This document shows, one piece after another, positions 1,228-22,655 of a stretch of DNA of 64,000 nt (position 1 is the stretch's first letter; each line of letters begins with the position of its first letter). This DNA is from Macrostomum lignano (lineage: Eukaryota): positions 112,940 through 176,939 of the forward strand of contig NIVC01002413.1 in the NCBI GenBank assembly GCA_002269645.1, read 5' to 3'. The translations under genes and the position numbers were made by a program. Below the pieces are notes generated by a model. That model was not told where the DNA came from. It searched no databases and was given only the letters and a program-made list of their open reading frames with translations.

Positions 1228-1260
1228 TGCATTGCATTCAGCTTGAAATTGAAATTGAAA

Positions 1261-4200
1261 TTGTGTGCGTGCATTCAGCTTGATTGGCTGCGGCAAGCAA
1301 GCTCGAAAGAGCTCGCTTCGCTCGCTCTTTCTCGCTATCTACCATCTATTGCCAGGACCTGCACCGGAGCGGTTACGAAAATTAGATTTCTCGGTAGTTG
1401 CTCGCACTCTTTTGCACTACTTGAGTAGTCTGATTTTCGAACGGCAGGCTGGTTCCAGCAGGTAGTTCCTCTGGATAAAAGCGCTTACCGCGCCCATTGG
1501 CTTTCCAGCTGCCTTAATCGTTTCCGGTGATCTTGTGTGCGTGCATTCAGCTTGATTGGCTGCGGCAAGCAAGCTCGAAAGAGCTCGCTTCGCTCGCTCT
1601 TTCTCGCTATCTACCATCTATTGCCAGGACCTGCACCGGAGCGGTTACGAAAATTAGATTTCTCGGTAGTTGCTCGCACTCTTTTGCACTACTTGAGTAG
1701 TCTGATTTTCGAACGGCAGGCTGGTTCCAGCAGGTAGTTCCTCTGGATAAAAGCGCTTACCGCGCCCATTGGCTTTCCAGCTGCCTTAATCGTTTCCGGT
1801 GATCTTGTGTGCGTGCATTCAGCTTGATTGGCTGCGGCAAGCAAGCTCGAAAGAGCTCGCTTCGCTCGCTCTTTCTCGCTATCTACCATCTATTGCCAGG
1901 ACCTGCACCGGAGCGGTTACGAAAATTAGATTTCTCGGTAGTTGCTCGCACTCTTTTGCACTACTTGAGTAGTCTGATTTTCGAACGGCAGGCTGGTTCC
2001 AGCAGGTAGTTCCTCTGGATAAAAGCGCTTACCGCGCCCATTGGCTTTCCAGCTGCCTTAATCGTTTCCGGTGATCTTGTGTGCGTGCATTCAGCTTGAT
2101 TGGCTGCGGCAAGCAAGCTCGAAAGAGCTCGCTTCGCTCGCTCTTTCTCGCTATCTACCATCTATTGCCAGGACCTGCACCGGAGCGGTTACGAAAATTA
2201 GATTTCTCGGTAGTTGCTCGCACTCTTTTGCACTACTTGAGTAGTCTGATTTTCGAACGGCAGGCTGGTTCCAGCAGGTAGTTCCTCTGGATAAAAGCGC
2301 TTACCGCGCCCATTGGCTTTCCAGCTGCCTTAATCGTTTCCGGTGATCTTGTGTGCGTGCATTCAGCTTGATTGGCTGCGGCAAGCAAGCTCGAAAGAGC
2401 TCGCTTCGCTCGCTCTTTCTCGCTATCTACCATCTATTGCCAGGACCTGCACCGGAGCGGTTACGAAAATTAGATTTCTCGGTAGTTGCTCGCACTCTTT
2501 TGCACTACTTGAGTAGTCTGATTTTCGAACGGCAGGCTGGTTCCAGCAGGTAGTTCCTCTGGATAAAAGCGCTTACCGCGCCCATTGGCTTTCCAGCTGC
2601 CTTAATCGTTTCCGGTGATCTTGTGTGCGTGCATTCAGCTTGATTGGCTGCGGCAAGCAAGCTCGAAAGAGCTCGCTTCGCTCGCTCTTTCTCGCTATCT
2701 ACCATCTATTGCCAGGACCTGCACCGGAGCGGTTACGAAAATTAGATTTCTCGGTAGTTGCTCGCACTCTTTTGCACTACTTGAGTAGTCTGATTTTCGA
2801 ACGGCAGGCTGGTTCCAGCAGGTAGTTCCTCTGGATAAAAGCGCTTACCGCGCCCATTGGCTTTCCAGCTGCCTTAATCGTTTCCGGTGATCTTGTGTGC
2901 GTGCATTCAGCTTGATTGGCTGCGGCAAGCAAGCTCGAAAGAGCTCGCTTCGCTCGCTCTTTCTCGCTATCTACCATCTATTGCCAGGACCTGCACCGGA
3001 GCGGTTACGAAAATTAGATTTCTCGGTAGTTGCTCGCACTCTTTTGCACTACTTGAGTAGTCTGATTTTCGAACGGCAGGCTGGTTCCAGCAGGTAGTTC
3101 CTCTGGATAAAAGCGCTTACCGCGCCCATTGGCTTTCCAGCTGCCTTAATCGTTTCCGGTGATCTTGTGTGCGTGCATTCAGCTTGATTGGCTGCGGCAA
3201 GCAAGCTCGAAAGAGCTCGCTTCGCTCGCTCTTTCTCGCTATCTACCATCTATTGCCAGGACCTGCACCGGAGCGGTTACGAAAATTAGATTTCTCGGTA
3301 GTTGCTCGCACTCTTTTGCACTACTTGAGTAGTCTGATTTTCGAACGGCAGGCTGGTTCCAGCAGGTAGTTCCTCTGGATAAAAGCGCTTACCGCGCCCA
3401 TTGGCTTTCCAGCTGCCTTAATCGTTTCCGGTGATCTTGTGTGCGTGCATTCAGCTTGATTGGCTGCGGCAAGCAAGCTCGAAAGAGCTCGCTTCGCTCG
3501 CTCTTTCTCGCTATCTACCATCTATTGCCAGGACCTGCACCGGAGCGGTTACGAAAATTAGATTTCTCGGTAGTTGCTCGCACTCTTTTGCACTACTTGA
3601 GTAGTCTGATTTTCGAACGGCAGGCTGGTTCCAGCAGGTAGTTCCTCTGGATAAAAGCGCTTACCGCGCCCATTGGCTTTCCAGCTGCCTTAATCGTTTC
3701 CGGTGATCTTGTGTGCGTGCATTCAGCTTGATTGGCTGCGGCAAGCAAGCTCGAAAGAGCTCGCTTCGCTCGCTCTTTCTCGCTATCTACCATCTATTGC
3801 CAGGACCTGCACCGGAGCGGTTACGAAAATTAGATTTCTCGGTAGTTGCTCGCACTCTTTTGCACTACTTGAGTAGTCTGATTTTCGAACGGCAGGCTGG
3901 TTCCAGCAGGTAGTTCCTCTGGATAAAAGCGCTTACCGCGCCCATTGGCTTTCCAGCTGCCTTAATCGTTTCCGGTGATCTTGTGTGCGTGCATTCAGCT
4001 TGATTGGCTGCGGCAAGCAAGCTCGAAAGAGCTCGCTTCGCTCGCTCTTTCTCGCTATCTACCATCTATTGCCAGGACCTGCACCGGAGCGGTTACGAAA
4101 ATTAGATTTCTCGGTAGTTGCTCGCACTCTTTTGCACTACTTGAGTAGTCTGATTTTCGAACGGCAGGCTGGTTCCAGCAGGTAGTTCCTCTGGATAAAA

Positions 4201-5694
4201 GCGCTTACCGCGCCCATTGGCTTTCCAGCTGCCTTAATCGTTTCCGGTGATCTTGTGTGCGTGCATTCAGCTTGATTGGCTGCGGCAAGCAAGCTCGAAA
4301 GAGCTCGCTTCGCTCGCTCTTTCTCGCTATCTACCATCTATTGCCAGGACCTGCACCGGAGCGGTTACGAAAATTAGATTTCTCGGTAGTTGCTCGCACT
4401 CTTTTGCACTACTTGAGTAGTCTGATTTTCGAACGGCAGGCTGGTTCCAGCAGGTAGTTCCTCTGGATAAAAGCGCTTACCGCGCCCATTGGCTTTCCAG
4501 CTGCCTTAATCGTTTCCGGTGATCTTGTGTGCGTGCATTCAGCTTGATTGGCTGCGGCAAGCAAGCTCGAAAGAGCTCGCTTCGCTCGCTCTTTCTCGCT
4601 ATCTACCATCTATTGCCAGGACCTGCACCGGAGCGGTTACGAAAATTAGATTTCTCGGTAGTTGCTCGCACTCTTTTGCACTACTTGAGTAGTCTGATTT
4701 TCGAACGGCAGGCTGGTTCCAGCAGGTAGTTCCTCTGGATAAAAGCGCTTACCGCGCCCATTGGCTTTCCAGCTGCCTTAATCGTTTCCGGTGATCTTGT
4801 GTGCGTGCATTCAGCTTGATTGGCTGCGGCAAGCAAGCTCGAAAGAGCTCGCTTCGCTCGCTCTTTCTCGCTATCTACCATCTATTGCCAGGACCTGCAC
4901 CGGAGCGGTTACGAAAATTAGATTTCTCGGTAGTTGCTCGCACTCTTTTGCACTACTTGAGTAGTCTGATTTTCGAACGGCAGGCTGGTTCCAGCAGGTA
5001 GTTCCTCTGGATAAAAGCGCTTACCGCGCCCATTGGCTTTCCAGCTGCCTTAATCGTTTCCGGTGATCTTGTGTGCGTGCATTCAGCTTGATTGGCTGCG
5101 GCAAGCAAGCTCGAAAGAGCTCGCTTCGCTCGCTCTTTCTCGCTATCTACCATCTATTGCCAGGACCTGCACCGGAGCGGTTACGAAAATTAGATTTCTC
5201 GGTAGTTGCTCGCACTCTTTTGCACTACTTGAGTAGTCTGATTTTCGAACGGCAGGCTGGTTCCAGCAGGTAGTTCCTCTGGATAAAAGCGCTTACCGCG
5301 CCCATTGGCTTTCCAGCTGCCTTAATCGTTTCCGGTGATCTTGTGTGCGTGCATTCAGCTTGATTGGCTGCGGCAAGCAAGCTCGAAAGAGCTCGCTTCG
5401 CTCGCTCTTTCTCGCTATCTACCATCTATTGCCAGGACCTGCACCGGAGCGGTTACGAAAATTAGATTTCTCGGTAGTTGCTCGCACTCTTTTGCACTAC
5501 TTGAGTAGTCTGATTTTCGAACGGCAGGCTGGTTCCAGCAGGTAGTTCCTCTGGATAAAAGCGCTTACCGCGCCCATTGGCTTTCCAGCTGCCTTAATCG
5601 TTTCCGGTGATCTTGTGTGCGTGCATTCAGCTTGATTGGCTGCGGCAAGCAAGCTCGAAAGAGCTCGCTTCGCTCGCTCTTTCTCGCTATCTAC
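1261..5694. repeat. Tandem array of 16 full + 1 partial (82 bp) apparently identical 272-bp units
   Basis: ORF track repeats identically every 272 bp (1265, 1537 ... 5617). Unit starts TTGTGTGCGTGCATTCAGC and ends TTTCCGGTGATC. Confidence 0.97.
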
Positions 5695-5800
5695 TATCTA
5701 TCTATCTATCTATGTGATCGATTAGAGAAAAAATGGCTGGACCGATTTTGTTCGAACTTGCACTGTTCGATTAGAAATTTTCCCGTGACAGTACATGCAT
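5687..5800 (+). mobile_element. Possible 5' region of a non-autonomous Helitron/Helentron-like element: (TATC)n microsatellite followed by AAAATGGCTGGACCGATTTTG
   Basis: A short microsatellite followed by a GGCTGGACCGATTTT-type motif resembles the arrangement in invertebrate non-autonomous Helitrons (from memory). No Rep/helicase or terminal hairpin was identified. Confidence 0.35.
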
Positions 5801-7015
5801 CGTGGCTAAGAAATTGCTCGATGCTAAAGGCATTAAATATTCGAAAAACATGCTTTTTTGCAAAGGTCAAGCAGCTCTTTCGACTTGAAATGCATTGTAA
5901 GAATGCTAGAGAACAAACTGACTGGTTGAATTCTGATTCTGAAATAGATTGCATCATAACTGAATTGTAACTCCGACTTGAATTGAAAATGCAGTGTGGA
6001 AGCGTAGCACCAGAATTGCGTAACCATATTGTTAACTGATACTGACTGACTGAGAAACTGATTATGTCATAACTGCTTCGTGTGATTTACTCTATGCTTG
6101 GATTTTCAAGTGTTGAATTATATAAGTGCAAAATTTAATGTTATCAAAACGATGAGAGCTAGGCTAGAGGTGAACAAACTGAACTGCTAAATGCAGCGAC
6201 GATGGTTCGAATTTTCATAGAGTATAATTTTTTTAATTAAAGCTTTTCAACGTCAGGAAAACTAAAATACTTTTAAAAAAGAATCGTCACGTAAAAATCA
6301 TAGAAGCGTCATGTAAAAAATCATAGAAGCGTCATGTAAACAATCATAGAAGCGTCATGTAAACAATCATAGAAGTGTCATGTAAAAAAATCATAGAAGC
6401 GTCATGTAAAAATCATAGAAGCGCCATGTAAACAATCATAGAAGCGTCATGTGAAAATCATAAAAGCGTCACGTAAAGAATCATAGAAGCGTCATGTAAA
6501 CAATCATAGAAGCGTCATGTAAAAAAATCATAGAAGCGTCACGTAAACAATCATAGAAGCGTCATGTAAAAATCATAGAAGCGTCATGTAAAAATCATAG
6601 AAGCGCCATGTAAACAATCATAGAAGCGTCATGTGAAAATCATAAAAGCGTCACGTAAAGAATCATAGAAGCGTCATGTAAACAATCATAGAAGCGTCAT
6701 GTAAAAAAATCATAGAAGCGTCACGTAAACAATCATAGAAGCGTCATGTAAAAATCATAGAAGCGTCATGTAAACAATCATAGAAGCGTCATGTAAACAA
6801 TCATAGAAGCGTCATGTAAACAATCATAGAAGCGTCATGTAAACAATCATAGAAGCGTCATGTAAAAAATCATAGAAGCGTCTTGTAAACAATCATACAA
6901 GCGTCATGTAAAAATCATAGAAGCGTCATGTAAACAATCATAGAAGCGTCATGTAAACAATCATAGAAGCGTCATGTAAAAAATCATAGAAGCGTCATGT
7001 AAACAATCATAGAAG
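5789..7015. repeat. Copy 2 of the 1.2-kb direct duplication
   Basis: Matches 1-1227 with offset 5788. Confidence 0.93.
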
Positions 7016-8830
7016 CGTCATTTAAAAAATCATAGAAACGTCATGTAAAAATCATAGAAGCGTCATGTAAAAAATCATAGAAGCGTCATGTAAACAATCA
7101 TAAAAGCATCATGTAAAAATCATTGAAGCGTCATATAAACAATCATAGAAGCGTCATGTAAAAAATCATAGAAGCGACATGTAAACAGTCATAGAAGCGT
7201 CATGTAAAAATCTTAAAAGCGTCATGTAAAAAATCATAGAAGCGTCATGTAAAAAATCATAGAAGCGTCATGTAAACAATCATAGAAGCGTCATGTAAAA
7301 AATCGTAGAAGCGTCATATAAAAATCATAGAAGCGTCATGTAAACAATCATAGAAGCGTCATGTAAACAATCATAGAAGCGTCATGTAAAAAATCATAGA
7401 AGCGTCATGTAAAGAATCGTAGAAGCGTCATGTAAAAAATCATAGAAGCGTCATGTAAAAAATCATAGAAGCGTCATGTAAAAAATCGTAGAAGCGTCAT
7501 ATAAAAATCATAGAAGCGTCATTTAAAAAATCATAAAAGCGTCACGTAAAGAATCATAGAAGCGTCATGTAAACAATCATAGAAGCGTCATGTAAAAAAA
7601 TCATAGAAGCGTCACGTAAACAATCATAAGAGCGTCGTGTAAAAATCATAGAAGCGTCATGTAAACAATCATAGAAGCGTCATGTAAACAATCATAGAAG
7701 CGTCATGTAAACAATCATAAAAGCATCATGTAAAAATCATTGAAGCGTCATATAAACAATCATAGAAGCGTCATGTAAAAAATCATAGAAGCGACATGTA
7801 AACAATCATAGAAGCGTCATGTAAAAATCTTAAAAGCGTCATGTAAAAAATCATAGAAGCGTCATGTAAAAAATCATAGAAGCGTCATGTAAACAATCAT
7901 AGAAGCGTCATGTAAAAAATCGTAGAAGCGTCATGTAAAAAATCATAGAAGCATCATGTAAAAAATCATAGAAGCGTCATGTAAAGAATCGTAGAAGCGT
8001 CATGTAAAAAATCATAGAAGCGTCATGTAAAAAATCATAGAAGCGTCATGTCAAAAATCGTAGAAGCGTCATATAAAAATCATAGAAGCGTCATTTAAAA
8101 AATCATAAAAGCGTCATGTAAAAAATCATAGAAGCGTCTTGTAAACAATCATACAAGCGTCATGTAAAAATCATAGAAGCGTCATGTAAAAAATCATAGA
8201 AGCGTCATGTAAACAATCATAGAAGCGTCATGTAAAAAATCGTAGAAGCGTCATGTAAAAATCATAGAAGCGTCATGTAAACAATCATAGAAGCGTCATG
8301 TAAACAATCATAGAAGTTTCATGTAAAAAATCATAGAAGCGTCATGTAAAGAATCGTAGAAGCGTCATATAAAAATCATAGAAGCGTCATTTAAAAAATT
8401 ATAAAAGCGTCATGTAAAAAATCATAGAAGCGTCATGTAAAGAATCGTAGAAGCGTCATATAAAAATCATAGAAGCGTCATTTAAAAAATTATAAAAGCG
8501 TCATGTAAAAAATCATAGAAGCGTCATGTAAAGAATCGTAGAAGCGTCATATAAAAATCATAGAAGCGTCATGTAAACAATCATAGAAGCGTCATGTAAA
8601 AAATCATAGAAGCGTCATGTAAAAAAGTCATAGAAGCGTCATGTAAACAATCGTAGAAGCGTCATATAAAAATCATAGAAGCGTCATGTAAACAATCATA
8701 GAAGCGTCATGTAAAAAATCATAGAAGCGTCATGTAAACAATCATAGAAGCGTCATGTAAAAAATCATAGAAGCGTCATGTAAAAATCCAAAGAAGCGTC
8801 ATGTCAGACATTAAAGGTGTCATGTAAAAA
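6280..8830. repeat. 22-24-bp minisatellite (same family as 492-1227), ~110 copies, degenerating at the right end
   Basis: Direct reading. Confidence 0.95.
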
Positions 8831-9910
8831 TTGAATGAAGCTATAGTACATTGCTGTGCTGGGGAGAATTACTGAGACGTCAAGGCTCACAGAGAATAAC
8901 TGAGATTACAGGGGGGGGGGGTTTCTGAGATGTCAAAGCAAAGTCAGAAGCTACTTCAAAGTTCATGTACTTTACTCAATTTTTTTATTGCATTCTTTGT
9001 TGGCTCGCCACGGGGGGGGGCGCTGATAGAAGAAGAGTCATGTAAAAAATAAAAGTAGCACTATGTATACATAAAAGAAAAGTCATGTCGAAGTTAAAAG
9101 ATTCATTTGGGAATTGCTACGATGTCAAAGCTAGGTGGAAATCGTTATAGTGCTGTGATTCTTAAAGAAGGAATCACTAAAATGTCAAGGCTTAGGGGAG
9201 AAGAATTGCTGAGATTTCAAGGCTTTAGGTTGGGTTAAAGTTAGGTTTAGGTCAGGTGTGGGTTGAGGGTTATATTTTATCGGGTTTCAAGGTTAACAGA
9301 ATAACAGAAGATTTTTTAGATTTCAAGGTTTATGGGGGCCATCGCTGACATGTTAAGGCTTACGGGGGGAATAGCTGAGATGTCAAGGCTCACGGGGTAT
9401 AAATGAGATTTCAAGGCTAAAGTCAGAAGCTACATGTAGTTTATTGAAAACTTTTTATTACATTATTTGATGCCTCCTCAGGGGAGGGATCGCTGATAGA
9501 AAAAGCATAATGTAAAAAATAAAAGAAGCTTCATGTCGAAGTTAAGAGATTCATTTGGGAATCCCTACGATGTCGAGGCTTGCAGGGAATCGCTATAATG
9601 CTGTAGTAGTGCTATAATGACTCAGAATTACTGAAATTTCAATGTTTTAGGGTTAGGTTAGGGTTAGGGTTAGGGTTAGGGTTAGGCTAGGGTTAGGGTT
9701 AGAAGGTTGACAGATATTTTTAGATTTCCAAGGCTTATTGGGGGCATTGCTGAGATGTCAAGGGGGGAAGTTGATATGTTAAAGCTTGTGGGGGGGGGAA
9801 TTACTGACATGTCAAGGCTTACAAGGTTTGACAGGAGATTTTTTAAGATTTCAAGGATACATGTAGCTTATTAAAAAAACGTGTATTGCATTTCTTTGGC
9901 TCCCCAACGG
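8830..9910. repeat. Degenerate repeat region: diverged ~470-bp tandem duplication with recurrent GCTGAGATGTCAAGGCT motifs
   Basis: Paired blocks, e.g. gctgatagaa...tgtaaaaaataaaag and tcatgtcgaagttaa.agattcatttgggaat, occur at ~9020-9115 and ~9490-9565. Confidence 0.7.
9647..9702 (+). repeat. Interstitial telomere-type (TTAGGG)n run, ~9 units with variants
   Basis: ttagggttaggttagggttagggttagggttagggttaggctagggttagggttag. Confidence 0.85.
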
Positions 9911-10795
9911 GGGGCGTAGATTGCTAGTTTTCAGTCTAAATTCTAATCGAATATTTTTAGCTCAGTAATTAATTTATTAGCAGGGGCCTATGCAGACTCG
10001 CAAATTTTAGTTAGAAGTCAGACAATAAAAATTGTCTACCTTTTTTTACCGTCTGGCGTCCATTAGGCTTACCTACCTTTTATTTTTAATTCTAAGTTTT
10101 ACAAAAGAGCCTGGACTGTTTTACTTAGATTTTTAAGTACCAAATAAAACTCATTAACAAACAAGCGAATTGTGCTAGCTAGGCTAGGCTATGCAACCTA
10201 CTTAGGCCTAGTGTAAGTAATTTGATTTTGACTTAGTTAGGCCTAGTCATAGTTTTGCAACTAACCCAACACAAAAAATGAAACAAATCTTTAGTTTAAT
10301 TTTGTTAAAAAATCTTTTTTAATTTAACATAGTGTAAAAAATGAATTGCCAAAGCCAACACTTGAATTTCCAATCTAGAGGTGCTAAAACAGAGTGGCGT
10401 ACTCTTAAGATGAATCTGACGATGCGACAATTTATTATACATGTATATTAGTTAATATTGAGAAATAAAACAAAGAGTATGTTATAAACCAGTTATGAAA
10501 ACTTTTAATTATAAATACATACAGTAAAAAGTACAATAAAATATAAATAGAATACAAATACAAATAATGCACGATATGAAATAAATACAAAATATGATTA
10601 CTTTTAAAATAAACAAAGATACATTACAATAGACCTAGGGCCTACGTTTTTTGAGTTTTTTTTAAACCCAATTTGTTAGGCCTATATTATCATTATGCTA
10701 ATTTCTATTAATTTAATGGCTTTGTATTGCATTTTAAATCTATAAAATAAAGTCTATCAAAATTTTCATTTTCACTTTTCAAATTACTAATGGAT

Positions 10796-11566
10796 TGTGA
10801 CAGGCCTTTTGGCTCTGTCTTTCTAAACTTCTAACTATTAGTGTTTATTAAATATCCTACGAGCTGCCACCAAAGTTGTTACAGGCCTTTCACCTCTTAC
10901 TTTATCAATTTTAATCCCACCGATTTGCCAACTACAGTTATCCTGATTATACTTGCTTTTACTCCCTAACTATTTCTTAGAATTTCATTTAAATATTTCT
11001 GGGTAGCGTTCTTAGTAGCGTTTCTGGTAGCGTTCTTAGTAGCGTTTCTGGTAGCTTATGGCTTGCTTTCTGGTAGCGTTCTAGTAGCTTATGGCCTGAG
11101 CGGTCTAGTACTGGTATATGTATTAGTGTATAGTCCTAATCGGGCGTTCACCGAGACTAGAGGGTCACGGCGCCTCTCTTGGTATATCTCCAAGAATTAG
11201 TCCCAATTCCCTTCTCTTAGCAAATTTCTTAGAATCGTTTCACAGGTTTTGCAAATAAATAAGTCGCTATTTAGCTCAAAGACTTTGAAATGGTTTAGAT
11301 TGAACTGCTTATTCTGTTCGCAATTATTTGCTCACGAGTAAAAGACAGTTAGAGTATATTTGTCGCAAAACCGCTCCTATATATAGTGGTTTCCCCCCCA
11401 TACGATTAAAACAAAAAAAATAATTCCCCAATTTATTTTGCGCAGTAAAACAAAAATATTCGGTACGGTAAAACAAAATATTTATCTAGTATTTCGCACG
11501 AGTTTAGTTTCTAAGAAAACATACCTTTATTGCTCAAAATTCGTACAGTATTGAAGCACTACTACA
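10796..11566 (-). repeat. 3' LTR (771 bp)
   Basis: Appears identical to 15014-15784; preceded on the minus strand by the PPT. Confidence 0.95.
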
Positions 11567-11580
11567 ACTTCCTCCTCTTA
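11567..11580 (-). other. Polypurine tract (TAAGAGGAGGAAGT) abutting the 3' LTR
   Basis: Plus strand reads acttcctcctctta immediately after the LTR end ...actaca. Confidence 0.85.
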
Positions 11581-11802: not shown

Positions 11803-12645
11803 TCAAATAAATTTGCATGGTTCAGGTAGATCACGGTAATAAGGCCAGCCGATTTGAGAGAAGAACCAGTTGTACTCCTCGTCTAGTACAGCTAGCGAAG
11901 GTGGCGGGTTGACTTGCCTGGCCCTTTGGATACGATGGGCGACATCTTGCAGAATCGCAACCGCTTCTTGGTGGCTAAACTGTTCCCTAAGGAACTTCAG
12001 GTGCTGCCAGATCTGAGACCCTTGAGGATATCGCTGCCGCATGTCAGATCGATGGTACGCGACCTTCAGCGAGTACTGCTCAATATGGAAGCGCAATTTC
12101 TCGACCTCAGATCCACGAGTCTCTACAAGCTTTCGGACAATTCGATGATAGTCTTGCTGCGGTGTCGGCGGCTGCGAAGCTGGTTGTTGACTCGGCTGCA
12201 GAGCTGGCTGTGGAGCTAGCTGCGGAACTGCCTGCAGACTCGGCGGCTGTTGAGCCGTTGTTGGCGCGGCCTCGGGCTTCTTCCGCCGCGGTGCTGGAGG
12301 CTTCTTCGATGGCGGGGCAGATGGCGGCGACACTAGCTGCTGCGTTCTTCCTGCTGTTGACGAGCCTGGCGTGGCCTTGATAACGTACGAACGAATGGGC
12401 GCCGCTGCCTGTGTTGTCAGCAAGGCGGCTCGCTTTTGCTCTGGGCCATCCACGTTTAATTGGCGGCACGGCGATGATGCTTGTGGCGATGCCCTCGGCC
12501 TTTTGTTGCTTACACCAGGCGCCTTTGGTCTTGTTGGACAACGTAGCGGCGCCTCGTTCTCGTCAACATTAGGCTCCGGCTGAGGCTCAATCTCTTCGGA
12601 CAGGTCACCGATCAACTCTTGCAGAATGTCGACTGAGTTATCCAT
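11803..12645 (-). CDS. Intact 280-aa accessory ORF of unknown function inside the LTR element (acidic N-terminus, Pro/Gln/Ala linker with basic clusters, ~115-aa helical C-terminal domain)
   Basis: ATG-initiated, uninterrupted, non-repetitive, same strand as gag. Sits between the pol remnant and the PPT. No signal peptide or TM segment, so not env-like. Confidence 0.7.
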   Translation of the reverse strand: MDNSVDILQELIGDLSEEIEPQPEPNVDENEAPLRCPTRPKAPGVSNKRPRASPQASSPCRQLNVDGPEQKRAALLTTQAAAPIRSYVIKATPGSSTAGRTQQLVSPPSAPPSKKPPAPRRKKPEAAPTTAQQPPSLQAVPQLAPQPALQPSQQPASQPPTPQQDYHRIVRKLVETRGSEVEKLRFHIEQYSLKVAYHRSDMRQRYPQGSQIWQHLKFLREQFSHQEAVAILQDVAHRIQRARQVNPPPSLAVLDEEYNWFFSQIGWPYYRDLPEPCKFI

Positions 12646-12726
12646 ATGGTTCTCTTCGAATGACTCTTAGAATAGAAAGGAAGCTAGCAGTGAGCTATGG
12701 GATCTGTGGGGCCTGCGGGGAGCTCG

Positions 12727-12793
12727 TATTTATAGGCTGGCGGGCCGAAAAACTGGACCTCTTCGAAGCACTCCCCTCGCGCGTGGGGCGGGG
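12727..12793 (-). promoter_or_regulatory. Candidate internal promoter for the accessory ORF: GC box (12785-12793) and TATAAATA (12734-12727)
   Basis: GGGGCGGGG lies ~50 bp upstream of a TATA box, which is ~80 bp upstream of the ATG at 12645, within a local GC-rich island. Confidence 0.55.
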
Positions 12794-13043
12794 CATGCCA
12801 GATTTGACAGATTTGACAACTAAATTTTTATGGATTTTCTATTTATTTTTATAACTTTTTTATTTTTTGATAGATTTTCTTGAGTAAAGTATCAAATTAA
12901 AGATCGCATTTTGTAGATTAATATGGTATTTACAGATTCGCTCTATGTACAGCATGTCAAATTTTATAAGCAGATAAGTAATTCTAATACGAAAATTTAA
13001 CTGTTTAACACTGTTTCTTATGGGAAATTGCTTACATCACTGC

Positions 13044-13592
13044 TTAAGGTGCTAAATATCTCGCGTAGCGCCTTCGGGGCACAAATCCTGTCGCGCCTTC
13101 TCTTTCTCTCTCTTGCTGAGTCACTCTATTGTCTCGGGGTCTCAAATTATAGCCTCCTACTGTGTTAGCACGTTCCTCCTCTAACTCTATTGCTCCTTCT
13201 TCTTCTTCTGATGGCTCATCTGAGTCAGTCGCTCTCTCTGTATTCTCACTGTTCAATTCCTCATTTCCTTCGTTTTCACTCTGCGAATTCGGATCTGCGA
13301 ATACTCTCCATTGAATTCTGTTTTCTTCGTCTGAGCTTTCCTCCTCTAAAATTTGAACTTCTGGAATTCTATTTTCTTTTTGTCTATGGCAAATTCTTTT
13401 CTTCGGCTTCGGCGGTTCCTTCTTCTTAGTTGACACTGGTGCTGGTTTTAAATTATTATTAATTTCTTCTGGTAAATCAATTTCGGATTTCGGCACTGGA
13501 GTCAGATTATTTCTATGCACTAATAGTTTTTCTCTTCGAACAACTTTGCAGATTCTCACAGCTTCTCCTCGAAATCTCATCTTCATTTTCAT
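13044..13592 (-). pseudogene. Probable pol remnant: Gypsy integrase C-terminal tail
   Basis: Contains ...VHRNNLTPV and YNLRPR-type motifs typical of Gypsy integrase C-termini (from memory). Upstream frames are broken and no RT YxDD was found. Confidence 0.5.
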
Positions 13593-14333
13593 CTCATCTC
13601 AACTCAACAACTTCTCGACTCAATATCTCAACTCGACCCTGACCTCTCGAAAGCTTCTCTGCTGAACTCATGCCAGCTACAGCTCTACTGTCACGGGTCC
13701 TACAACTCTTAACAAATTCTCAAATCTCGAATCTCCTTCCGCTATCTCAGTTTGGCCTCGTCAGTAGAATCATAGAAATTCTGTATTAATCTGCTCTTTA
13801 GGCCTTACTGCCCTTCCTTTCCTGCATGGCCTGACTCTCTGAACCTTTTTTGGCTCTTCTGAAAGCGTCATCGGCCTCTTCTTTCTGCCTTTGGCCAATC
13901 CGCAATTGGTCAGCATGCGTAGCTGTCCGCGCGTCATGCCAATCTCTGCAATTCTCTTCGCACAATTCTGCACAGTTCTCTCAGCATCAACTTCTCGTCA
14001 ACTTCTCTGAGTAAAATAATCTTCCTTCAATGTTTTCAGTCCGAAATTGCAGTTCCCTGGCTTTCCTAAATAAGTTTCTTAGTAAAACGGCCCTTTTAAG
14101 GTCAAACGGCCCTTTTAAGGGTCACCTTCCTAAAATTTAATTATTTTATTTCTTTTAGACAGCTTATTGCCTTGCAACATGCCAACAAAATACCTCTTAA
14201 TCAAATGTTTTTGGGTTTTTCTGAATTTTTTATTCGTTTTTATATTTATGCATATATATTTGAAACATATTTACAGATTTGCTTTACAGACACTTTTAAT
14301 TTGCTGATTCGCTTGAGTTCGCTCACTTTCTGT

Positions 14334-14912
14334 TTATGGCGGCTTCTGCTGGGCGTACCGATTGAAGTTGATTCGGCACTGGTGTCCTGCTTGAGGCCTA
14401 ATGGGTCCTGGCTGGTTGCAGAAGAAGCAGTGACCAGGTGTCGGCTCTGGCCTGATTCCACTGAATCTGTTCAGGCGGCGCGGTCTTGGCACTGACTGAT
14501 GCTGCTGCCCTGTCTTTGGTTCTAGGCTAATGTTCGTTAGCACGAAGGTCAAGGTCATTAGACACTCTACTAATGCATCAATTCCCTCTTTTCGGTTCTG
14601 CTGCTTCGGCTCAAATTCTTCGATTATTCGTCGCCTAATTTCCTGATACTGACTCTGCTCTTTTCTGTGACTGATTCGGCGTTTCAGTCCCTCTGGGATG
14701 TTTAGATTAGCAAAGAGAGCTTCCTTCTGTTTCTCGCCTGTAATCCCTTGGATTCTGCACTGCTGCTCAAACGTGTTCATCCACTGCCTAATGTTCTGAC
14801 CAGGTGTGAACTTTTCTACTTGCACTTCAGCCTCTTTCGATCCTAACTTGAGATGTTTCCGCAGTTCCTCTGCCAGCATGGCGATGGCATCATTAGCCTG
14901 ATTCTGATTCAT
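14334..14912 (-). CDS. Gag-like ORF (192 aa) with a degenerate zinc knuckle
   Basis: First ORF after the PBS. FTPGQNIRQWMNTFEQQC resembles Gypsy capsid N-termini. CFFCNQPGP...GHQC is a distorted CCHC motif. Confidence 0.6.
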   Translation of the reverse strand: MNQNQANDAIAMLAEELRKHLKLGSKEAEVQVEKFTPGQNIRQWMNTFEQQCRIQGITGEKQKEALFANLNIPEGLKRRISHRKEQSQYQEIRRRIIEEFEPKQQNRKEGIDALVECLMTLTFVLTNISLEPKTGQQHQSVPRPRRLNRFSGIRPEPTPGHCFFCNQPGPIRPQAGHQCRINFNRYAQQKPP

Positions 14913-15000: not shown

Positions 15001-15011
15001 CGCTGCCACCA
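15001..15011 (-). other. Primer-binding site TGGTGGCAGCG, complementary to the 3' end of tRNA-Leu (...CGCUGCCACCA)
   Basis: Lies 2 nt inside the 5' LTR end; plus strand reads cgctgccacca-gc-tgtgaca. Confidence 0.8.
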
Positions 15012-15013
15012 GC

Positions 15014-15784
15014 TGTGACAGGCCTTTTGGCTCTGTCTTTCTAAACTTCTAACTATTAGTGTTTATTAAATATCCTACGAGCTGCCACCAAAGTTGTTAC
15101 AGGCCTTTCACCTCTTACTTTATCAATTTTAATCCCACCGATTTGCCAACTACAGTTATCCTGATTATACTTGCTTTTACTCCCTAACTATTTCTTAGAA
15201 TTTCATTTAAATATTTCTGGGTAGCGTTCTTAGTAGCGTTTCTGGTAGCGTTCTTAGTAGCGTTTCTGGTAGCTTATGGCTTGCTTTCTGGTAGCGTTCT
15301 AGTAGCTTATGGCCTGAGCGGTCTAGTACTGGTATATGTATTAGTGTATAGTCCTAATCGGGCGTTCACCGAGACTAGAGGGTCACGGCGCCTCTCTTGG
15401 TATATCTCCAAGAATTAGTCCCAATTCCCTTCTCTTAGCAAATTTCTTAGAATCGTTTCACAGGTTTTGCAAATAAATAAGTCGCTATTTAGCTCAAAGA
15501 CTTTGAAATGGTTTAGATTGAACTGCTTATTCTGTTCGCAATTATTTGCTCACGAGTAAAAGACAGTTAGAGTATATTTGTCGCAAAACCGCTCCTATAT
15601 ATAGTGGTTTCCCCCCCATACGATTAAAACAAAAAAAATAATTCCCCAATTTATTTTGCGCAGTAAAACAAAAATATTCGGTACGGTAAAACAAAATATT
15701 TATCTAGTATTTCGCACGAGTTTAGTTTCTAAGAAAACATACCTTTATTGCTCAAAATTCGTACAGTATTGAAGCACTACTACA
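15014..15784 (-). repeat. 5' LTR (771 bp)
   Basis: Appears identical to 10796-11566; followed on the minus strand by the PBS. Confidence 0.95.
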
Positions 15785-17994
15785 GGATAAACTTAGTATT
15801 GTTTGGTAGCCACACTCTGAATCATGTAGCATACTCCCAAAAATTTGGGCATGCATTGGCAATGAATACCAAAAATAGATAGGCCTATGCACAGTTAGCA
15901 TGCATCACTTCTGAAAAAAGTGCATGCATACCTAGTATACACTTTATAGAATCATATAAGAGTTTATTGTAAAGTAGAAAAAAGATGAAAAAAAATATTT
16001 TTAAGCATAAATTTCAAGCCTTCTAGGTTTCTTTAACTCGCAATAAAGTATTTAAACAAATCTTTGCATGCATCAATTTCCACTATAAATAGTATAGCCA
16101 AAAAAGCAGAAAAATTAACCAAATTACTTGCCAAAATGGTCTATTATGCAATTTAAAAAAGGTTGTTTATTGTCACAATATAAAAAAGGTCATTTATTAT
16201 TGTAACACTGGTGTAATTCTGAGAATGTGTTTGTACTCAATTTTTTTTCAGTGTGCATTTGTAATTGTTCAATTTTTGTTTGGGCATGCACCTAGCATGA
16301 TCTGGACTATGGGTTAGTAGTTGGTATTTCTGCTTGGTTGGTTAGTTATGTTAGTATTTTTGATATTAAATAAAAGAAACTAGATAGGTCTAGTCTTAAT
16401 AGAGTCAGTTAAAGGCTTTCAAAACTTTACATTTTATATGCATTAATACTTCTTTTTTATACTTTACTATTTTATATTTGATAAATAAACTAAATAGGCC
16501 TAGTATTTCTAGTCACATGTATATGTGACTATTTTGACAGACTTGATTTTCATGGGTTTAAAATGCAATGCAAAATGAATCTGTCAAAATTGCCAATAAT
16601 TGCCAACATATTGCCAATCAATTTGTAATTTATAATATAAATAACATATAAAGTTTATTACAATACATAAATTTTGATATTTGATTGCTTTTTAACTATC
16701 AAGTCTAATATATAATAGTAGGCCTACTTTTATGCTTTTTAAATGTCACAAAATAATACCATTTTTCATTTACAATAAGGCCTATAGATCATTATTAACT
16801 TTGCAACAATCAAAAATAAAAACAAAAATATGTTGCACATATTTAACCTTAAAATTTTTACCAAAAGCTTAAAAACTAATCTTTTTCTAATCATAAGATT
16901 GGCCAGATTCTAGCCTAAGCTTAAAGCAGTAGATTGGCTTAATTTAATTATTGACTTACTTGGAATCATAGAATTCTATGCTTAGAATTATACATATGCG
17001 ACATCCTAATTTTAACTAGCCATGTGACTTACTTTTTTGAACAAAATGCAATCTACCTATGATAGAAACCCTAAAGCAAAATTGTTATAATTTTAGGTAA
17101 ATGGTAGAAGTAGTTATGACTATCTAACTATCTTATTAATTCTAAATGCTTTGTCATCTAATTAATACTATGTCTGTATTTTTAGGGTGGGAATTTTTAT
17201 GACTTACCCTTAGTCTACCACAATTTACAGTAGCCAGGTTGGCAAGCAGTTGCACATGTATGCTTGGTATTCTCTATGTCTTGGAGCAAGACACTTAATC
17301 CTACATTACTAGTTATTTCTTGTTATAACCTGTTACAAGGTTTTTATTGTCTTTAAAAGGTTGCTACTAAATAAAGTTTAAGGGTCAGGCATATATGCTT
17401 AGCTCTACTTTTAAAAATATATATTTTATTTATTTTAACTATACAACTATTGATATTACTATATTATGTTATTTGTCTTTGAATTAATATGCTCGTATCT
17501 AAAAATTATTATCAAGTATATTTAAAATAAGTTAAGTGATTCTATCTCATTAGTAATCCTTAGAGCAAAAAATTTCTAACCATTGATTTTTATAATAAAA
17601 ACATTTTGCTTGAAAAATTCTATCCATTCTTTTGTCTAAATAAATTGTTCATAATGATATGCCCTTTAACTTGCACTTAAATATATTTACTATCAATTAC
17701 AGATCTTTTTAGTAACCAGTAGTTATTGCTATATGGTTTTAATATTACATTTTATTGTTTTTTTATCATTGGTACTCACATTCCATTTGTCACTTTTATA
17801 GTCTAGCAAAACTCACTAAATTAATAAAATCAAAGCAAAAAATAGATGAAAATGAATAAAAACTTGAATAGTAGTTGAAAAATAATGAGAAAAGATTTTG
17901 ATTGCATGCATGCAAAGCAAAGCTATTTTGCAATAAGGCTGTCTAGTATATAGGTGTTTTAAAGTTTTTTAAGAGATTGTAATGTGTGCATCAT

Positions 17995-18086: not shown

Positions 18087-18575
18087 CTTATATTTCATAT
18101 ATACCAAACTATTATTAGTACTGGTCAATCTAGCTAGTATTTTTTGGTAGATTAGGACTAGATCACAAAACTGATTGTATTATATTATGATTATTAGTAC
18201 AAGTGAAATCAGTTTTTCCAATACTTTGTAAATGTGTAAAAACTGGTGCATACTTTCTTGGCCTGATAAAATTATAGAGCTATATAAAATAACACTTTGC
18301 AGCCACACTTGCCTGAAGTCTGCAGAACCAAGCAGTGCAGTGTGCGCAAGAGACAGTTGCTGGTTAACTAATTAAGGGGCCATTGTGATCGCCCCTTCAG
18401 CTAATCCTTCGACTAAAAACTACAAGATAGGAGGTACATTTTTAAAGACTTTAAATTCCTAATTTAAATCGGAATTCTGGATTTTAAACAGGACAAAAAA
18501 GATCGGCAAAAGAAAAAGAAAAGGAAACAGCAACAACAGCAAGACGAGTCTCCTAGAAGCCAGGCTTTAGTCAGC

Positions 18576-19202
18576 ATGTCTTCGTCAACTGCTGTAGTGT
18601 CGGCCGCCGAGGTTTCCGCCGCTGCCGCTTCGTCATCGTCAGTTCTTTCAACAACAACAGCAACAACAGACTCGCCCGTGGCCGCGAAGAAGAGCGTCGA
18701 GTTGCCGTCTGCGCCGCCACCAGATCCGCCTAGCACTGCCGAATCCACCGATGCTAGCGAAGCGCCAGTCGCTAGCGTAGCTCCAAGCGGCGACGGACCG
18801 CCGCCATTTGACGATAATAATGCTGCCAATACTGCAGCCTCGTGTGCATCAGCCGTAAGAGTCGGCGGTAACAGCGCCGAAGGCAGCCGAGCCAGCAGCA
18901 AGAAAGCATCAGCTTCGGCGTCTCCTGCGAGACATCCGGCGGCTGCTGCTGCGTCATCGGCTACAGATACGCTGGCAACCCAGCAGCAGCGCGAGGAACT
19001 GGAAGATCTAGCTAAACGCCTGGCTGACTATCTGCGAGTAATGGAGGATGGCATTGGCGTGCGAGACACTCTTAACGACGATATTGGATCCTTCTTGGAG
19101 AAGACTCTGTCTTGCGATAATCTGCGCAAAGATCGGGCTCACCTGCTGGAGCTGGACGAGTGGCTCAAGCATCAGGCCAAGATTCTTGATCAGGGCTCTC
19201 AG
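18576..19202 (+). CDS. R3HDM/ARPP21-like: R3H-domain RNA-binding protein (R3HDM1/2-ARPP21-encore family), exon 1 of 2; spliced protein ~797 aa
   Basis: FLEKTL...DRAHLLELD resembles the helix preceding R3H in ARPP21 (FLINTLKNNSRDRMILLKME). Phase-0 donor CAG|gtggac. Confidence 0.72.
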
Positions 19203-19299
19203 GTGGACTTTTATACTGACCACTATTCATGGATCAATGCTGCTATATTAGTTCTTAGATAGGGTCACGACTCACCGTAGACTTTTGCTATCTCCATTG

Positions 19300-20850
19300 C
19301 TTGTCCAGCCCTCCCAGATCTTCAGTTGCTGGGCCAGCCTTCCAGAGTGTCAGTCGCTGGGCCATCAGCCTCCCAGATTCTTAGTTGCTGGGTCAGCCTC
19401 CCAGATTCTCAGTTGCTGGGCCATCAGCTTCCCAGATTCTCAGTTGCTGGGTCAGCCTCCCAGATTCTCAGTTGCTGGGCCAGTCTCCCAGATTCTCAGT
19501 TGCTGGGCCAGCCTCACAGATCCTCAGTTGCTGGGCCAGCCTCACAGATCCTCAGTTTCTGGGCCAGCCTCCCAGATCTTCAGTTGCTGGGCCAGCCTCC
19601 CAGATCCTCAGTTGCTGGGCCAGCCTCCCAGATCTTTAGTTGCTGGGCCAGCCTCCCAGATCCTCAGTTGCTGGGCCAGCCTCCCAGATCTTCAGTTGCT
19701 GGGTCAGCTTCCCAGATTCTCAGTTGCTGGGCCAGCCTCACAGATCCTCAGTTGCTGGGCCAGCCTCACAGATCCTCAGTTGCTGGGCCAGCCTCCCAGA
19801 TCTTCAGTTGCTGGGCCAGCCTCCCAGATCCTCAGTTGCTAGGCCAGCCTCCCAGATCCTCAGTTGCTGGGCCAGCCTCCTAGATCCTCAGTTGCTAGGC
19901 CAGCCTCTGAGATCCTCAGTTGCTAGGCCAGCCTCCCAGATCCTCAGTTGCTGGGCCAGCCTCTGAGATCCTCAGTTGCTAGGCCAGCCTCCCAGATTCT
20001 CAGTTGCTAGGTCAGCCTCCCAGATTCTCAGTTGCTGGGCCAGCCTTCCAGATCCTCAGTTGCTGGGCCAGCCTCCCAGATCCTCAGTTGCTGGGCCAGC
20101 CTCTGAGATCCTCAGTTGCTAGGCCAGCCTCCCAGATTCTCAGTTGCTAGGTCAGCCTCCCAGATTCTCAGTTGCTGGGCCAGCCTCCCAGATCTTCAGT
20201 TGCTGGGTCAGCTTCCCAGATTCTCAGTTGCTGGGCCAGCCTCACAGATCCTCAGTTGCTAGGCCAGCCTCACAGATCCTCAGTTTCTGGGCCAGCCTCC
20301 CAGATCTTCAGTTGCTGGGCCAGCCTCCCAGATCCTCAGTTGCTAGGCCAGCCTCCCAGATCCTCAGTTGCTGGGCCAGCCTCCTAGATCCTCAGTTGCT
20401 AGGCCAGCCTCTGAGATCCTCAGTTGCTAGGCCAGCCTCCCAGATCCTCAGTTGCTGGGCCAGCCTCTGAGATCCTCAGTTGCTAGGCCAGCCTCCCAGA
20501 TCCTCAGTTGCTGGGCCAGCCTCCTAGATCCTCAGTTGCTAGGCCAGCCTCTGAGATCCTCAGTTGCTAGGCCAGCCTCCCAGATCCTCAGTTGCTGGGC
20601 CAGCCTCTGAGATCCTCAGTTGCTAGGCCAGCCTCCCAGATTCTCAGTTGCTAGGTCAGCCTCCCAGATTCTCAGTTGCTGGGCCAGCCTCCCAGATTCT
20701 CAGTTGCTGGGCCAGCCTCCCAAATCCTCAGTTGCTAGGCCAGTCTCCCAGATCCTCAGTTGCTGGGCCGGCCTCCCAGATCCTCAGTTGCTGGGCCGGC
20801 CTCCCAGAGTGTCAGTTGCTGGGCCAGCCTCTCAGATCCTCAGTTGCTAG
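19300..20850. repeat. 28-bp intronic minisatellite (CAGCCTCCCAGATCCTCAGTTGCTGGGC), ~55 copies
   Basis: Direct reading; 28-aa periodicity in the shadow ORFs. Confidence 0.95.
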
Positions 20851-20888
20851 GCAACTATACACAATGCACCGCCCGTACTCCCCCGCAG

Positions 20889-22655
20889 GACGGAGATGAG
20901 ACTCTGTGGACCAATCAGGACCCGCGAACTCGCATGCTGATGCACAAGCTGTGCGCATTCTACGGCCTCGATCACAACATAATGGGCCCCTACCAGAACA
21001 ACACAATCAGAATTGAACGTCAAAAAGATCGATTTCGCAATTGGAATTTTTCTGTCAGCGATCTGGCCAGATACTACGAGTTGAGAGACCTGCTGCAACA
21101 GTCTGGCAGCACCGGCGGTGGTCAAAACGGCGGCGGAGCTAACAAAGAGGCCAGCCCCACTGTGCTGTTGAATGGCCAGCAGCAGCAGCAGCAGCCCTCT
21201 TCATCAACTTCCGGTTCCGGGGATCACCAACCCTCGCCGACTGGGAAGAAGGCTGCGCCAGTAGCAGGAGGCGGTGGCGCTGGTCCCCCCCGGCCGCCGC
21301 AGATGCAGTCGCCGGCATCGTCAGGCAGTTCAAAGCATCATCCACACGGCGTGCCTAATCAGGCCGGCGGCGGCGGCGGGCACCGCGCCGGCGGACCCCC
21401 GTACGAGGATTTTAATAATCGTCGACGCAAAGAAATTGGCGGCGGTGTTGGCGGCTCGCCGTCGCCTTCGTCAGCAGCAGTCGTTGGGCAGTCTGGAGTG
21501 CGGCAACAGCAGCACCAGCCGCATCATCAGCATCAGCAATCGATGGATGAGGCATCGGCAGGTGCATCAGGCGGCAGGCCCTGCTCAGGAACGGCCAGTC
21601 CCCAGCCAAATTACTATGCCCCGGTTTACCTTAGAGACGATACGCAGGTGTTCCGGCTGCTGCCCTGTCGGGTATCTGAGCTCAATAGAGGCGAGCCAGT
21701 CTACCTGGACGCTCGCGGGCCCCTAATCAGCGCTGCCGATGGCTGCAGTCTGTACAGATTCGATCCAGAGCAGCGCAATGCTCTGGCCCAGGCTCCGCTG
21801 TCTGTGCAGCCTAATCTGCCTGCTCAGCTGCCACAACAGCATCAGCAGCAGCATCATCTCACTGGCCAGCGACTACCTCCGCCGCCTCCGATGCAGCATC
21901 AGCAGCAGCATCAGCAACAGGCTCAGCATCTCGCTGCCGAGCATTACACAGCCGTGTCGCTTTCGCAGCAGCAGCAACCGCAACAGCAGCAGATATTTTA
22001 TCAGGCTGTCACACCTGCTCAGATTGCTGCCTATCATCACCAGCAACAGCAGCACCACCAGCAGCAGCATCAGCAGCACTATTCTCAAGCTTCAATTGTT
22101 CCCGCTTATCCTTCGGCCGCTGCTGTTCAACCCGCCGCTGCGCCAGTGTACATCCATCAACAGCATCAGCATCAACAGTCCGCCGCCGCTGCAGCAGCCG
22201 CTGCCGCTGCCGCCGCCGCTGCCGCTCATCAGCACGTGGCTTCGCCTCCGCCGCAGCCTCCGCCACCGCCGCCTCAGCAGCCGCAGCCGCCAACCACGCA
22301 TCAGCTGCATCATCAGCATCAGCATTCTGTTGCGGCAGTTGCGGCCGCGGCTGCTCAGCACTATCAGCAGCAGCAGCAGGCTGCTCTGTACGCAGCAGCT
22401 TACCACCAGCAGCAGCAACAGCAGCAGCAGCAATACCAGCACATGGCAGCAGCTGCTCGATTTGCTCAGGGCCCGGCTTTTCAGTTTGTGCCTCAGCATC
22501 AGCCGCAGCAGCATCCGCAGTCTGCCGCTACCGCTGCCGCCGCAGCCGCCGCCGCCGCTGCTCAAATGAGATTCTCGCAACAGCAACAGCAGCAATACAC
22601 AGGAGGTGGCGGCGGAGCCGGTGGCCCCGCAGACTCTCAGCGATCTTCATCTTGA
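20889..22655 (+). CDS. R3HDM/ARPP21-like: R3H-domain protein, exon 2 (R3H core followed by long Q/H/A/P low-complexity region)
   Basis: Phase-0 acceptor ccgtactcccccgcag|GAC. RMLMHKLCAFYGLDHNI matches the R3H consensus RMLVHRVAAYFGLDHNV. Confidence 0.8.
   Translation, partial: DGDETLWTNQDPRTRMLMHKLCAFYGLDHNIMGPYQNNTIRIERQKDRFRNWNFSVSDLARYYELRDLLQQSGSTGGGQNGGGANKEASPTVLLNGQQQQQQPSSSTSGSGDHQPSPTGKKAAPVAGGGGAGPPRPPQMQSPASSGSSKHHPHGVPNQAGGGGGHRAGGPPYEDFNNRRRKEIGGGVGGSPSPSSAAVVGQSGVRQQQHQPHHQHQQSMDEASAGASGGRPCSGTASPQPNYYAPVYLRDDTQVFRLLPCRVSELNRGEPVYLDARGPLISAADGCSLYRFDPEQRNALAQAPLSVQPNLPAQLPQQHQQQHHLTGQRLPPPPPMQHQQQHQQQAQHLAAEHYTAVSLSQQQQPQQQQIFYQAVTPAQIAAYHHQQQQHHQQQHQQHYSQASIVPAYPSAAAVQPAAAPVYIHQQHQHQQSAAAAAAAAAAAAAAAHQHVASPPPQPPPPPPQQPQPPTTHQLHHQHQHSVAAVAAAAAQHYQQQQQAALYAAAYHQQQQQQQQQYQHMAAAARFAQGPAFQFVPQHQPQQHPQSAATAAAAAAAAAAQMRFSQQQQQQYTGGGGGAGGPADSQRSSS

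Follow-up and report, generated by a model that had tools for sequence, protein, structure and literature searches.

The third gene of a Ty3/Gypsy LTR retrotransposon of Macrostomum lignano, here called ORF3, is under purifying selection, and ORF3 together with the U3 of its element behaves as a cassette that is exchanged across near-identical gag-pol backbones. Judging by the sequence upstream of it, ORF3 is likely made from an internal TATA promoter of its own. By analogy with better-known proteins we tentatively favor the view, to which we give somewhat less than an even chance, that it is a nuclear self-activator or de-repressor of its element's own LTR, acting by transactivation or anti-silencing. 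All window coordinates below refer to the 64,000-nucleotide stretch of M. lignano DNA that we analyzed (the window).

The carrier of ORF3 in the window is a young, pol-less element of 4989 bp whose two 771-bp LTRs are 100% identical (Table 1). It possesses the hallmarks of Ty3/Gypsy elements (TG...CA LTRs, a primer-binding-site-like motif, a polypurine tract and a target-site duplication); the reverse transcriptase, RNase H and integrase core are missing. The same primer-binding-site-like motif, which we take to correspond to tRNA-Leu, follows the 5' LTR in 17 of the 17 elements listed, and 4-bp target-site duplications flank 16 of 17. Full-length relatives (L032, L048) encode a gag with a CCHC zinc knuckle followed by a pol in the order PR-RT-RH-INT and are therefore Ty3/Gypsy elements. 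Database matches to the reverse transcriptase were unnamed or unclassified (~33-51% identity), three short motifs were not found in the file of six heat-shock families of PMC12801592, and the element is assigned to no named Ty3/Gypsy clade such as Mag, CsRN1, Gmr1/Osvaldo or Mdg3.

Table 1. Features of the ORF3-bearing element in the window, with the location of the stand-alone homologue
Feature	Position	Strand	Remarks
5' LTR	15014..15784	(-)	771 bp, TG...CA; TATA near 15603; 100% identical to 3' LTR
Primer-binding-site-like sequence	15002..15011	(-)	directly after 5' LTR
Short gag-derived ORF	14334..14912	(-)	192 aa; belongs to a distinct pol-less lineage; purifying selection
Integrase C-terminal remnant of pol	13044..13598	(-)	97% identical to the L032 pol end
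GC box	12785..12794	(-)	from sequence; confined to close sister families
GGTCCAGTTTTTC block of the likely internal promoter	12747..12759	(-)	conserved, non-coding; 31/34 near-branch loci
TATA box TATAAATA	12727..12734	(-)	predicted start ~12705 (TATA+29)
ORF3	11803..12645	(-)	280 aa, ATG start; third gene of the element
ORF3 modules			acidic helix 6-15; AP(L/E)RxPTRP motif; KR...KRAA and short helix 68-80; P/Q linker; helical domain ~166-280
Polypurine tract	11567..11580	(-)	from sequence
3' LTR	10796..11566	(-)	U3 with TTCN3GAA palindrome (11517-11509) and TTGTTT repeats; 12/24-nt tandem array 10996-11088
Target-site duplication	10792..10795	(-)	ATCC, 4 bp; partner 15785-15788
Stand-alone gene	L100:4639-5169 (G000:C846); also L072, L073		identical to P0005

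Several further observations concern the LTRs and the rest of the window. The LTR, like those of several relatives, holds an inner second copy of its own end and of the primer-binding-site-like motif about 80 nt before the true end (15090 and 10872). Its tandem array (10996-11088 and 15214-15306) lies downstream of the TATA and has a short core that reappears in many near-branch LTRs, where its period varies, and that gives way to other units in the remaining branches; some tandem repeat is present in 24 of 28 LTRs. The TTCN3GAA palindrome, found in the window at 15735-15727 and 11517-11509, occurs in 18 of 35 U3s as against 6% in shuffled sequences, and at least two TTGTTT words occur in 27 of 35 U3s, a count taken with no control. 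We take these to be STAT-type and forkhead-type motifs, respectively. Heat-shock elements of the published pattern were found in none of the LTRs of 22 elements, three of which had one match inside pol. The closest copy of the window's element, L031, has an extra stretch (4052-6250), which lies inside its integrase remnant and contains an open frame of 733 codons. Elsewhere in the window, a 1227-bp direct repeat (1-1227 and 5789-7015, within 1-8850) flanks a near-perfect tandem array of 16 copies of 272 bp, with 23-bp satellites alongside, and low-complexity, exon-like frames at 18468-19262 and 20739-22655 on the plus strand, split by a 28-bp minisatellite and lacking a Pfam match, are a probable host gene.

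An earlier, sequence-only reading had described ORF3 as a 280-aa frame with an acidic N-terminus, basic clusters, a disordered P/Q linker, a compact helical C-terminal domain and no transmembrane segment, and this architecture held up well. The frame is real, it contains MDNSVDILQELIGDLSEEIE, NKRPR and KKPPAPRRKKP, its residues 1-40 carry a net charge of -9, and proline plus glutamine make up 48% of residues 100-165. Both basic clusters are thus present, although KKPPAPRRKKP is not conserved among relatives. AlphaFold predicted helices at residues 6-15 and 68-80 of the full protein, low-confidence linkers and a confident helical domain at ~163-280, and modelled the last 115 residues alone as a five-helix domain (pLDDT 91, pTM 0.85). 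The 19-residue hydropathy maximum is 0.77, indicating no transmembrane segment; the 280 residues include three cysteines and no N-glycosylation sequon (NxS/T), and the acidic, non-hydrophobic N-terminus would argue against a signal peptide. At 280 aa, the allele in the window falls 21 codons short of its two closest copies, which have 301 aa. A homodimer prediction made with no alignment scored 0.01, which is evidence in neither direction.

A homologue search had been suggested in that reading, and it revealed a large family in the same genome: the C-terminal domain (C-domain) gave 140 matches among 150 scored candidates, at identities from 100% down to 26%, and a divergent family member used as query gave 150 matches, in a list overlapping the first. 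By manual count of 40 fetched loci, 16 have gag/pol, 18 are pol-less with a short gag, one has only an integrase remnant and five have neither; among further divergent loci, pol matches were found at 19 of 20. ORF3 is placed after pol in the full-length elements and is retained in the pol-less ones. A search of 5.8 billion proteins together with a profile search of 1.84 billion representatives returned four M. lignano records, a cluster from a sequencing run (P0002/P0007) and a repeat-rich protein, P0006 (E 4e-7, 42 profile positions), which was set aside as likely spurious; the profile search accounted for six matches, and a second profile search scored 7989 candidates for one match. P0004 is a chimeric-looking gene model containing an ORF3-family fragment. 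All named true homologues found in these searches are Macrostomum proteins.

Neither sequence nor fold comparison connected ORF3 to a described family. Full-length ORF3 matched no Pfam family at E<=1, and 32 ORF3 C-domains gave weak, scattered matches to 20 families, each seen in at most two members; no match to a Tas family was seen in either set, although Pfam presumably includes a Tas model, and none to DUF1985 or DUF287, the domains of VANC. A sequence search of the PDB gave four matches, none significant (best E 0.3). The Foldseek search with the AlphaFold domain model that the sequence-only reading had suggested likewise produced nothing significant (best E 1.3 in the PDB and in BFVD). 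The best VIA fold comparison (Z 8.3, rmsd 2.8, 89 aligned) fell below the Z of ~13 needed for helical bundles, and an Atlas search via the homologue P0001 gave no feature match and only structure rows below the naming bar. Missing fold matches of this kind do not demonstrate a new fold. In the published literature we found no description of the family, which may be mentioned in supplements 2-4 of PMC12801592 or in the earlier classification paper cited there; in the main text of that paper on M. lignano LTR elements the word 'ORF' occurs 0 times.

Selection on ORF3 is evident from comparison of its alleles. Among 1176 pairs of 49 distinct domains, pN was lower than pS in all 65 pairs with pN<0.25 and pS>0.05; these are raw pN/pS values, the dN/dS summary being distorted by saturated distant pairs. 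Between the window-type domain and its sister family pN is 0.10 and pS 0.80-0.84. The claim that this is a genuine accessory retroelement ORF on a Gypsy-type carrier is thereby borne out. The build of the protein is conserved as well: the first 30 residues have a net charge of -7 to -11 in 26 of 27 full-length proteins (the exception is N-truncated), the PTRP motif is retained in 24 of the 27, and a KR-x(10-22)-K[RK][AS] pair is found in 16 of 27 aligned proteins, all of them near-branch, and is absent from the 11 deep-branch proteins. The linkers expand freely as tandem peptide repeats. The C-domain is basic (pI 8.1-11.3) in 50 of 54 loci and neutral or acidic in four.

These results bear on the possibility that ORF3 is a decayed piece of env or gag, or neutral cargo, which we regard as extremely improbable. 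ORF3 does sit where env is found in three-ORF elements, and the five fetched loci lacking gag and pol nearby are remnants. However, a protein with no transmembrane segment or sequon, with no consistent Pfam family among 32 members and with no viral fold match is not an env or gag fragment; gag is moreover a separate ORF, and purifying selection on ORF3 is strong.

The sequence-only reading had also placed a GC box and a TATA box upstream of ORF3 as an internal promoter. Both are there. Counted over the two strands of the whole window, TATAAATA occurs ten times; the GC box has two occurrences, which fall at the one spot upstream of ORF3, but it is restricted to the close sister families. The conserved promoter element is instead a GGTCCAGTTTT block just upstream of the TATA. 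It precedes ORF3 in 31 of 34 near-branch loci and in 0 of 19 deep-branch loci, and within 40 nt after it a strict TATAWA is found in 22, and a TATA-like word in 27, of the 34 near-branch loci, a set that includes near-identical copies. The frame in which the block is read differs from copy to copy; it is therefore kept as non-coding sequence. Three deep-branch loci have CCAAT plus TATA, and the L088-L099 group has no strict TATA within 260 nt.

Transcript evidence for this promoter is weak. None of the sequencing runs listed as containing the sequence is recorded as RNA, and those used here, X1 among them, are only guessed to be RNA. Run X1 contains an exact 1158-nt contig of the window allele, with coverage continuing upstream of 12693. 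That contig's end at 12693 does not mark a start site, because it is a 30-nt assembly-graph overlap with the next contig; what stands of the promoter claim is the conserved promoter-like block. The predicted start near 12705 is carried over from the stand-alone homologue described below. No joint between the 5' LTR and ORF3 was present among the 11 contig joints listed, and splicing remains compatible with the data. Finally, across 12 elements the internal promoter shares no more sequence with its own U3 than with mismatched ones (22.5 versus 23.2), and no motif rose above background.

One homologue, P0005, is a stand-alone gene of 118 aa, on the plus strand of L100, that has the promoter block and TATA but, of the protein, only the helical domain; it lacks both the acidic helix and the last WP tail. 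We found no gag, pol or LTR in the 29.7 kb surrounding the L100 gene, nor in 9.9 kb at L072 and L073, a search in which faint remnants may have escaped, tblastn having missed the C-domain itself in L104. The flanks of the three copies are 94-98% alike, and the copies are probably duplicates of one locus. In run X1 an exact 754-nt contig begins at L100:4692, 30 nt after the first T of the TATA, with a depth of 90 as against 0-6.5 upstream. The bin 4554-4667 is empty in three RNA-type runs and has ~110 coverage in run X16, which is even across the region; the X5 contig of the gene starts 30 nt later than that of X1. The contig start at 4692 gives a weak hint that the promoter works with no LTR present, contigs carrying no strand and a DNA variant at 4691 being also able to end a contig there. 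Also counting against it, a contig joint at L100:3416-4942 suggests antisense (minus-strand) processed transcripts that cross the stand-alone ORF into a neighboring gene. A loose end is shared by three runs at L100:3424 and seen in one run at L100:5100. We take these ends to resemble a trans-splice leader on the minus strand, a likeness not confirmed against passages of PMC5730564.

The stand-alone gene is probably host-captured. Because it carries the promoter block of the element, it would more likely derive from the element than be its source. For the suggestion that ORF3 is itself a captured gene, no donor was identified.

The exchange of cassettes is seen when backbones and ORF3 alleles are compared in the same elements. 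Across 21 elements the RT-RH region is 84-100% identical and the C-domain 21-98%. L032 and L036/L039 are 96-100% identical in their gag-pol bins and 44-71% identical in their ORF3 and LTR bins, and similar patterns surround L048 and L099. ORF3 and U3 travel together: a similar U3 was found in 0 of 783 pairs with C-domain identity below 60%, versus 24 of 26 pairs at 95% or more. There are exceptions. L032 and L069 have nearly the same LTR and ORF3 alleles that are saturated at silent sites, and therefore the pairing is not one-to-one; two other pairs share the same ORF3 and have unlike U3s, possibly through boundary errors. The RT-RH tree and the C-domain tree agree on a 9-member and a 7-member group, which makes ORF3 an old component of the clade. 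Linkage of ORF3 and U3 can be explained by their adjacency and by the lack of homology for crossover, with no cognate pairing.

The pol-less elements, comprising the window's and 18 fetched loci, form an old lineage with a selected short gag of its own. The short gag of the window is 33-40% identical to full-length gag and 56-98% identical among pol-less copies, and relative to divergent pol-less copies it shows pN 0.16-0.24 and pS 0.71-0.95. The lineage carries ORF3+LTR cassettes of different full-length families. Whole ORF3 is kept in 13 of 18 pol-less copies by manual count, which may reflect recent cassette pick-up and to that extent weakens the case for self-activation.

Many deeply diverged alleles thus coexist on near-identical, young backbones, with LTR pairs of cassette-bearing elements mostly 97-100% identical, and the pol-less lineage collects cassettes too. 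Such a pattern might be expected of a selfish immunity or addiction module in which each cassette type serves as a self label and either blocks elements of other types or gives protection against them, much as phage immunity groups do. We consider this a long shot, since the cassette has no second partner gene and exclusion needs no activation-type helix.

For self-activation of the LTR, the footing is the position of ORF3 after pol, selection, its modular build, the promoter block, the absence of a membrane segment and the way ORF3 and U3 move as a pair; the steps of nuclear import, target binding and activation are drawn from sequence features and from analogy with Tas, VANC and Grande gene23. 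The internal promoter would yield a short ORF3 mRNA with no need of the LTR, and the protein made from it would enter the nucleus by means of its KR...KR motifs. Docking at the LTR would fall to the basic helical domain, with DNA, chromatin or a host repressor as its binding partner, and a co-activator would be brought in by the acidic amphipathic N-terminal helix. Divergence of ORF3 would then go hand in hand with that of its target, the two being exchanged as a unit, and the stand-alone helical-domain gene, as a host-captured copy, could compete with full ORF3. Several observations count against self-activation. No known DNA-binding fold is matched by the ORF3 domain, an internal promoter has no more sequence in common with its cognate U3 than with others, and the linkage can stem from adjacency, with the L032/L069 exception to one-to-one pairing. 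The paired basic motif is missing in the 11 deep-branch proteins, four of 54 domains are not basic, and the L088-L099 group is without a strict TATA. In addition, U3s keep the TTCN3GAA palindrome, so host factors may drive the LTR unaided.

The missing promoter-U3 motif would be accommodated if ORF3 were a general antagonist of host defense with no LTR target of its own, its domain binding a silencing or restriction factor and its linear motifs recruiting an adaptor or ligase. We regard this as unlikely, though well worth entertaining. Several short conserved motifs lie within disordered sequence, the domain is all-helical, a kind that often binds proteins, and the deep divergence of alleles on uniform backbones fits a conflict with the host. 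That diversity is, however, accompanied by strong purifying selection, with no pair having pN above pS, and the constant acidic amphipathic N-terminus plus basic domain would better fit a transcription activator.

A third view, that ORF3 acts on the RNA or particle of the element (export, packaging or nuclear import of the integration complex) in the manner of Rev- or Vpr-type accessory proteins, seems to us distinctly improbable. The C-domain is basic and arginine-rich, the LTR tandem arrays lie downstream of the TATA and hence within the transcript, with repeats in 24 of 28 LTRs, and such a role has been proposed for extra ORFs of plant elements (PMC7264820). Yet variation in ORF3 is uncoupled from that in gag-pol, not what one would expect of a protein that works with Gag or integrase, and a separate promoter would rather suit an early regulator.

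Extending self-activation to its fullest form, the clade would encode its own activator of undescribed fold; many diverged activator-U3 cognate pairs would be reassorted on a common gag-pol backbone, an old pol-less satellite lineage would exploit them, and the host would have captured the promoter and binding domain minus the activation helix as a dominant-negative repressor. We think this composite scenario unlikely as a whole.

Third ORFs of LTR elements that have no known function are a standing question, and most of the resolved animal cases are env genes or borrowed enzymes. The ORF3 family offers a lineage-specific, well-predicted domain in dozens of natural alleles, together with promoter variants that match them and a stand-alone copy that is truncated. 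Macrostomum is a genus with working reporter transgenesis (PMC12801592), and with these alleles self-activation, anti-silencing and host counter-capture become directly testable.

By analogy, we propose that ORF3 resembles foamy virus Tas and Arabidopsis VANC in its way of working; it is a member of neither family. Like Tas (PMC4929722), ORF3 falls in the range of ~250-300 aa and is coded directly ahead of the 3' LTR, in its case behind a likely internal promoter. The bovine foamy virus protein, BTas, has an N-terminal DNA-binding part and a C-terminal activation part and binds both the LTR and the internal promoter (PMC4929722). In ORF3, by contrast, the acidic helix comes first and the folded basic domain last, and Tas comes from an env-bearing retrovirus (PMC4929722). 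The likeness to Tas drawn in the sequence-only reading therefore extends to layout only, there being no family match, a reversed domain order and no motif shared by promoter and U3.

In Arabidopsis VANDAL elements, VANC proteins are much more variable than the transposase and contain tandem peptide repeats (PMC5735166). ORF3 is likewise element-coded and more variable than the core enzyme, combines conserved domains with tandem peptide repeats, and is accompanied by tandem arrays in non-coding DNA. Unlike ORF3, VANC belongs to a DNA transposon, has DUF1985/DUF287 domains and removes DNA methylation (PMC5735166), and the LTR array core seen here is common to many near-branch cassettes.

Among retrotransposons, GENE23 of maize Grande is a nuclear protein of unknown function with its own promoter (PMC7264820). 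Like gene23 and the additional ORFs of plant elements, ORF3 lies between pol and the 3' LTR of a Ty3/Gypsy element, lacks database homologues and likely has a promoter of its own; the plant ORFs are antisense (PMC7264820), whereas ORF3 is sense, is found in an animal and has no visible homology to them. In Oikopleura, the animal LTR elements Tor3b and Tor4b transcribe a third ORF from a promoter after or in pol, but its product is a membrane glycoprotein (env) (PMC4402516), and ORF3 has neither transmembrane segment nor sequons. LTR elements of bdelloid rotifers, also invertebrates, have family-specific, non-env ORF3s that are recognizable enzymes (GDSL, DEDDy) or transmembrane/coiled-coil proteins (PMC5408684), whereas the ORF3 domain described here has no recognizable source. 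Third ORFs with their own promoter (Grande, Oikopleura Tor) and non-env ORF3s (bdelloids) are thus already known. Cassette exchange and a host-captured copy do not appear in the passages of PMC7264820 on plant ORFs, and what is new here is the swapping of ORF3/U3 cassettes on gag-pol backbones that are 96-100% identical.
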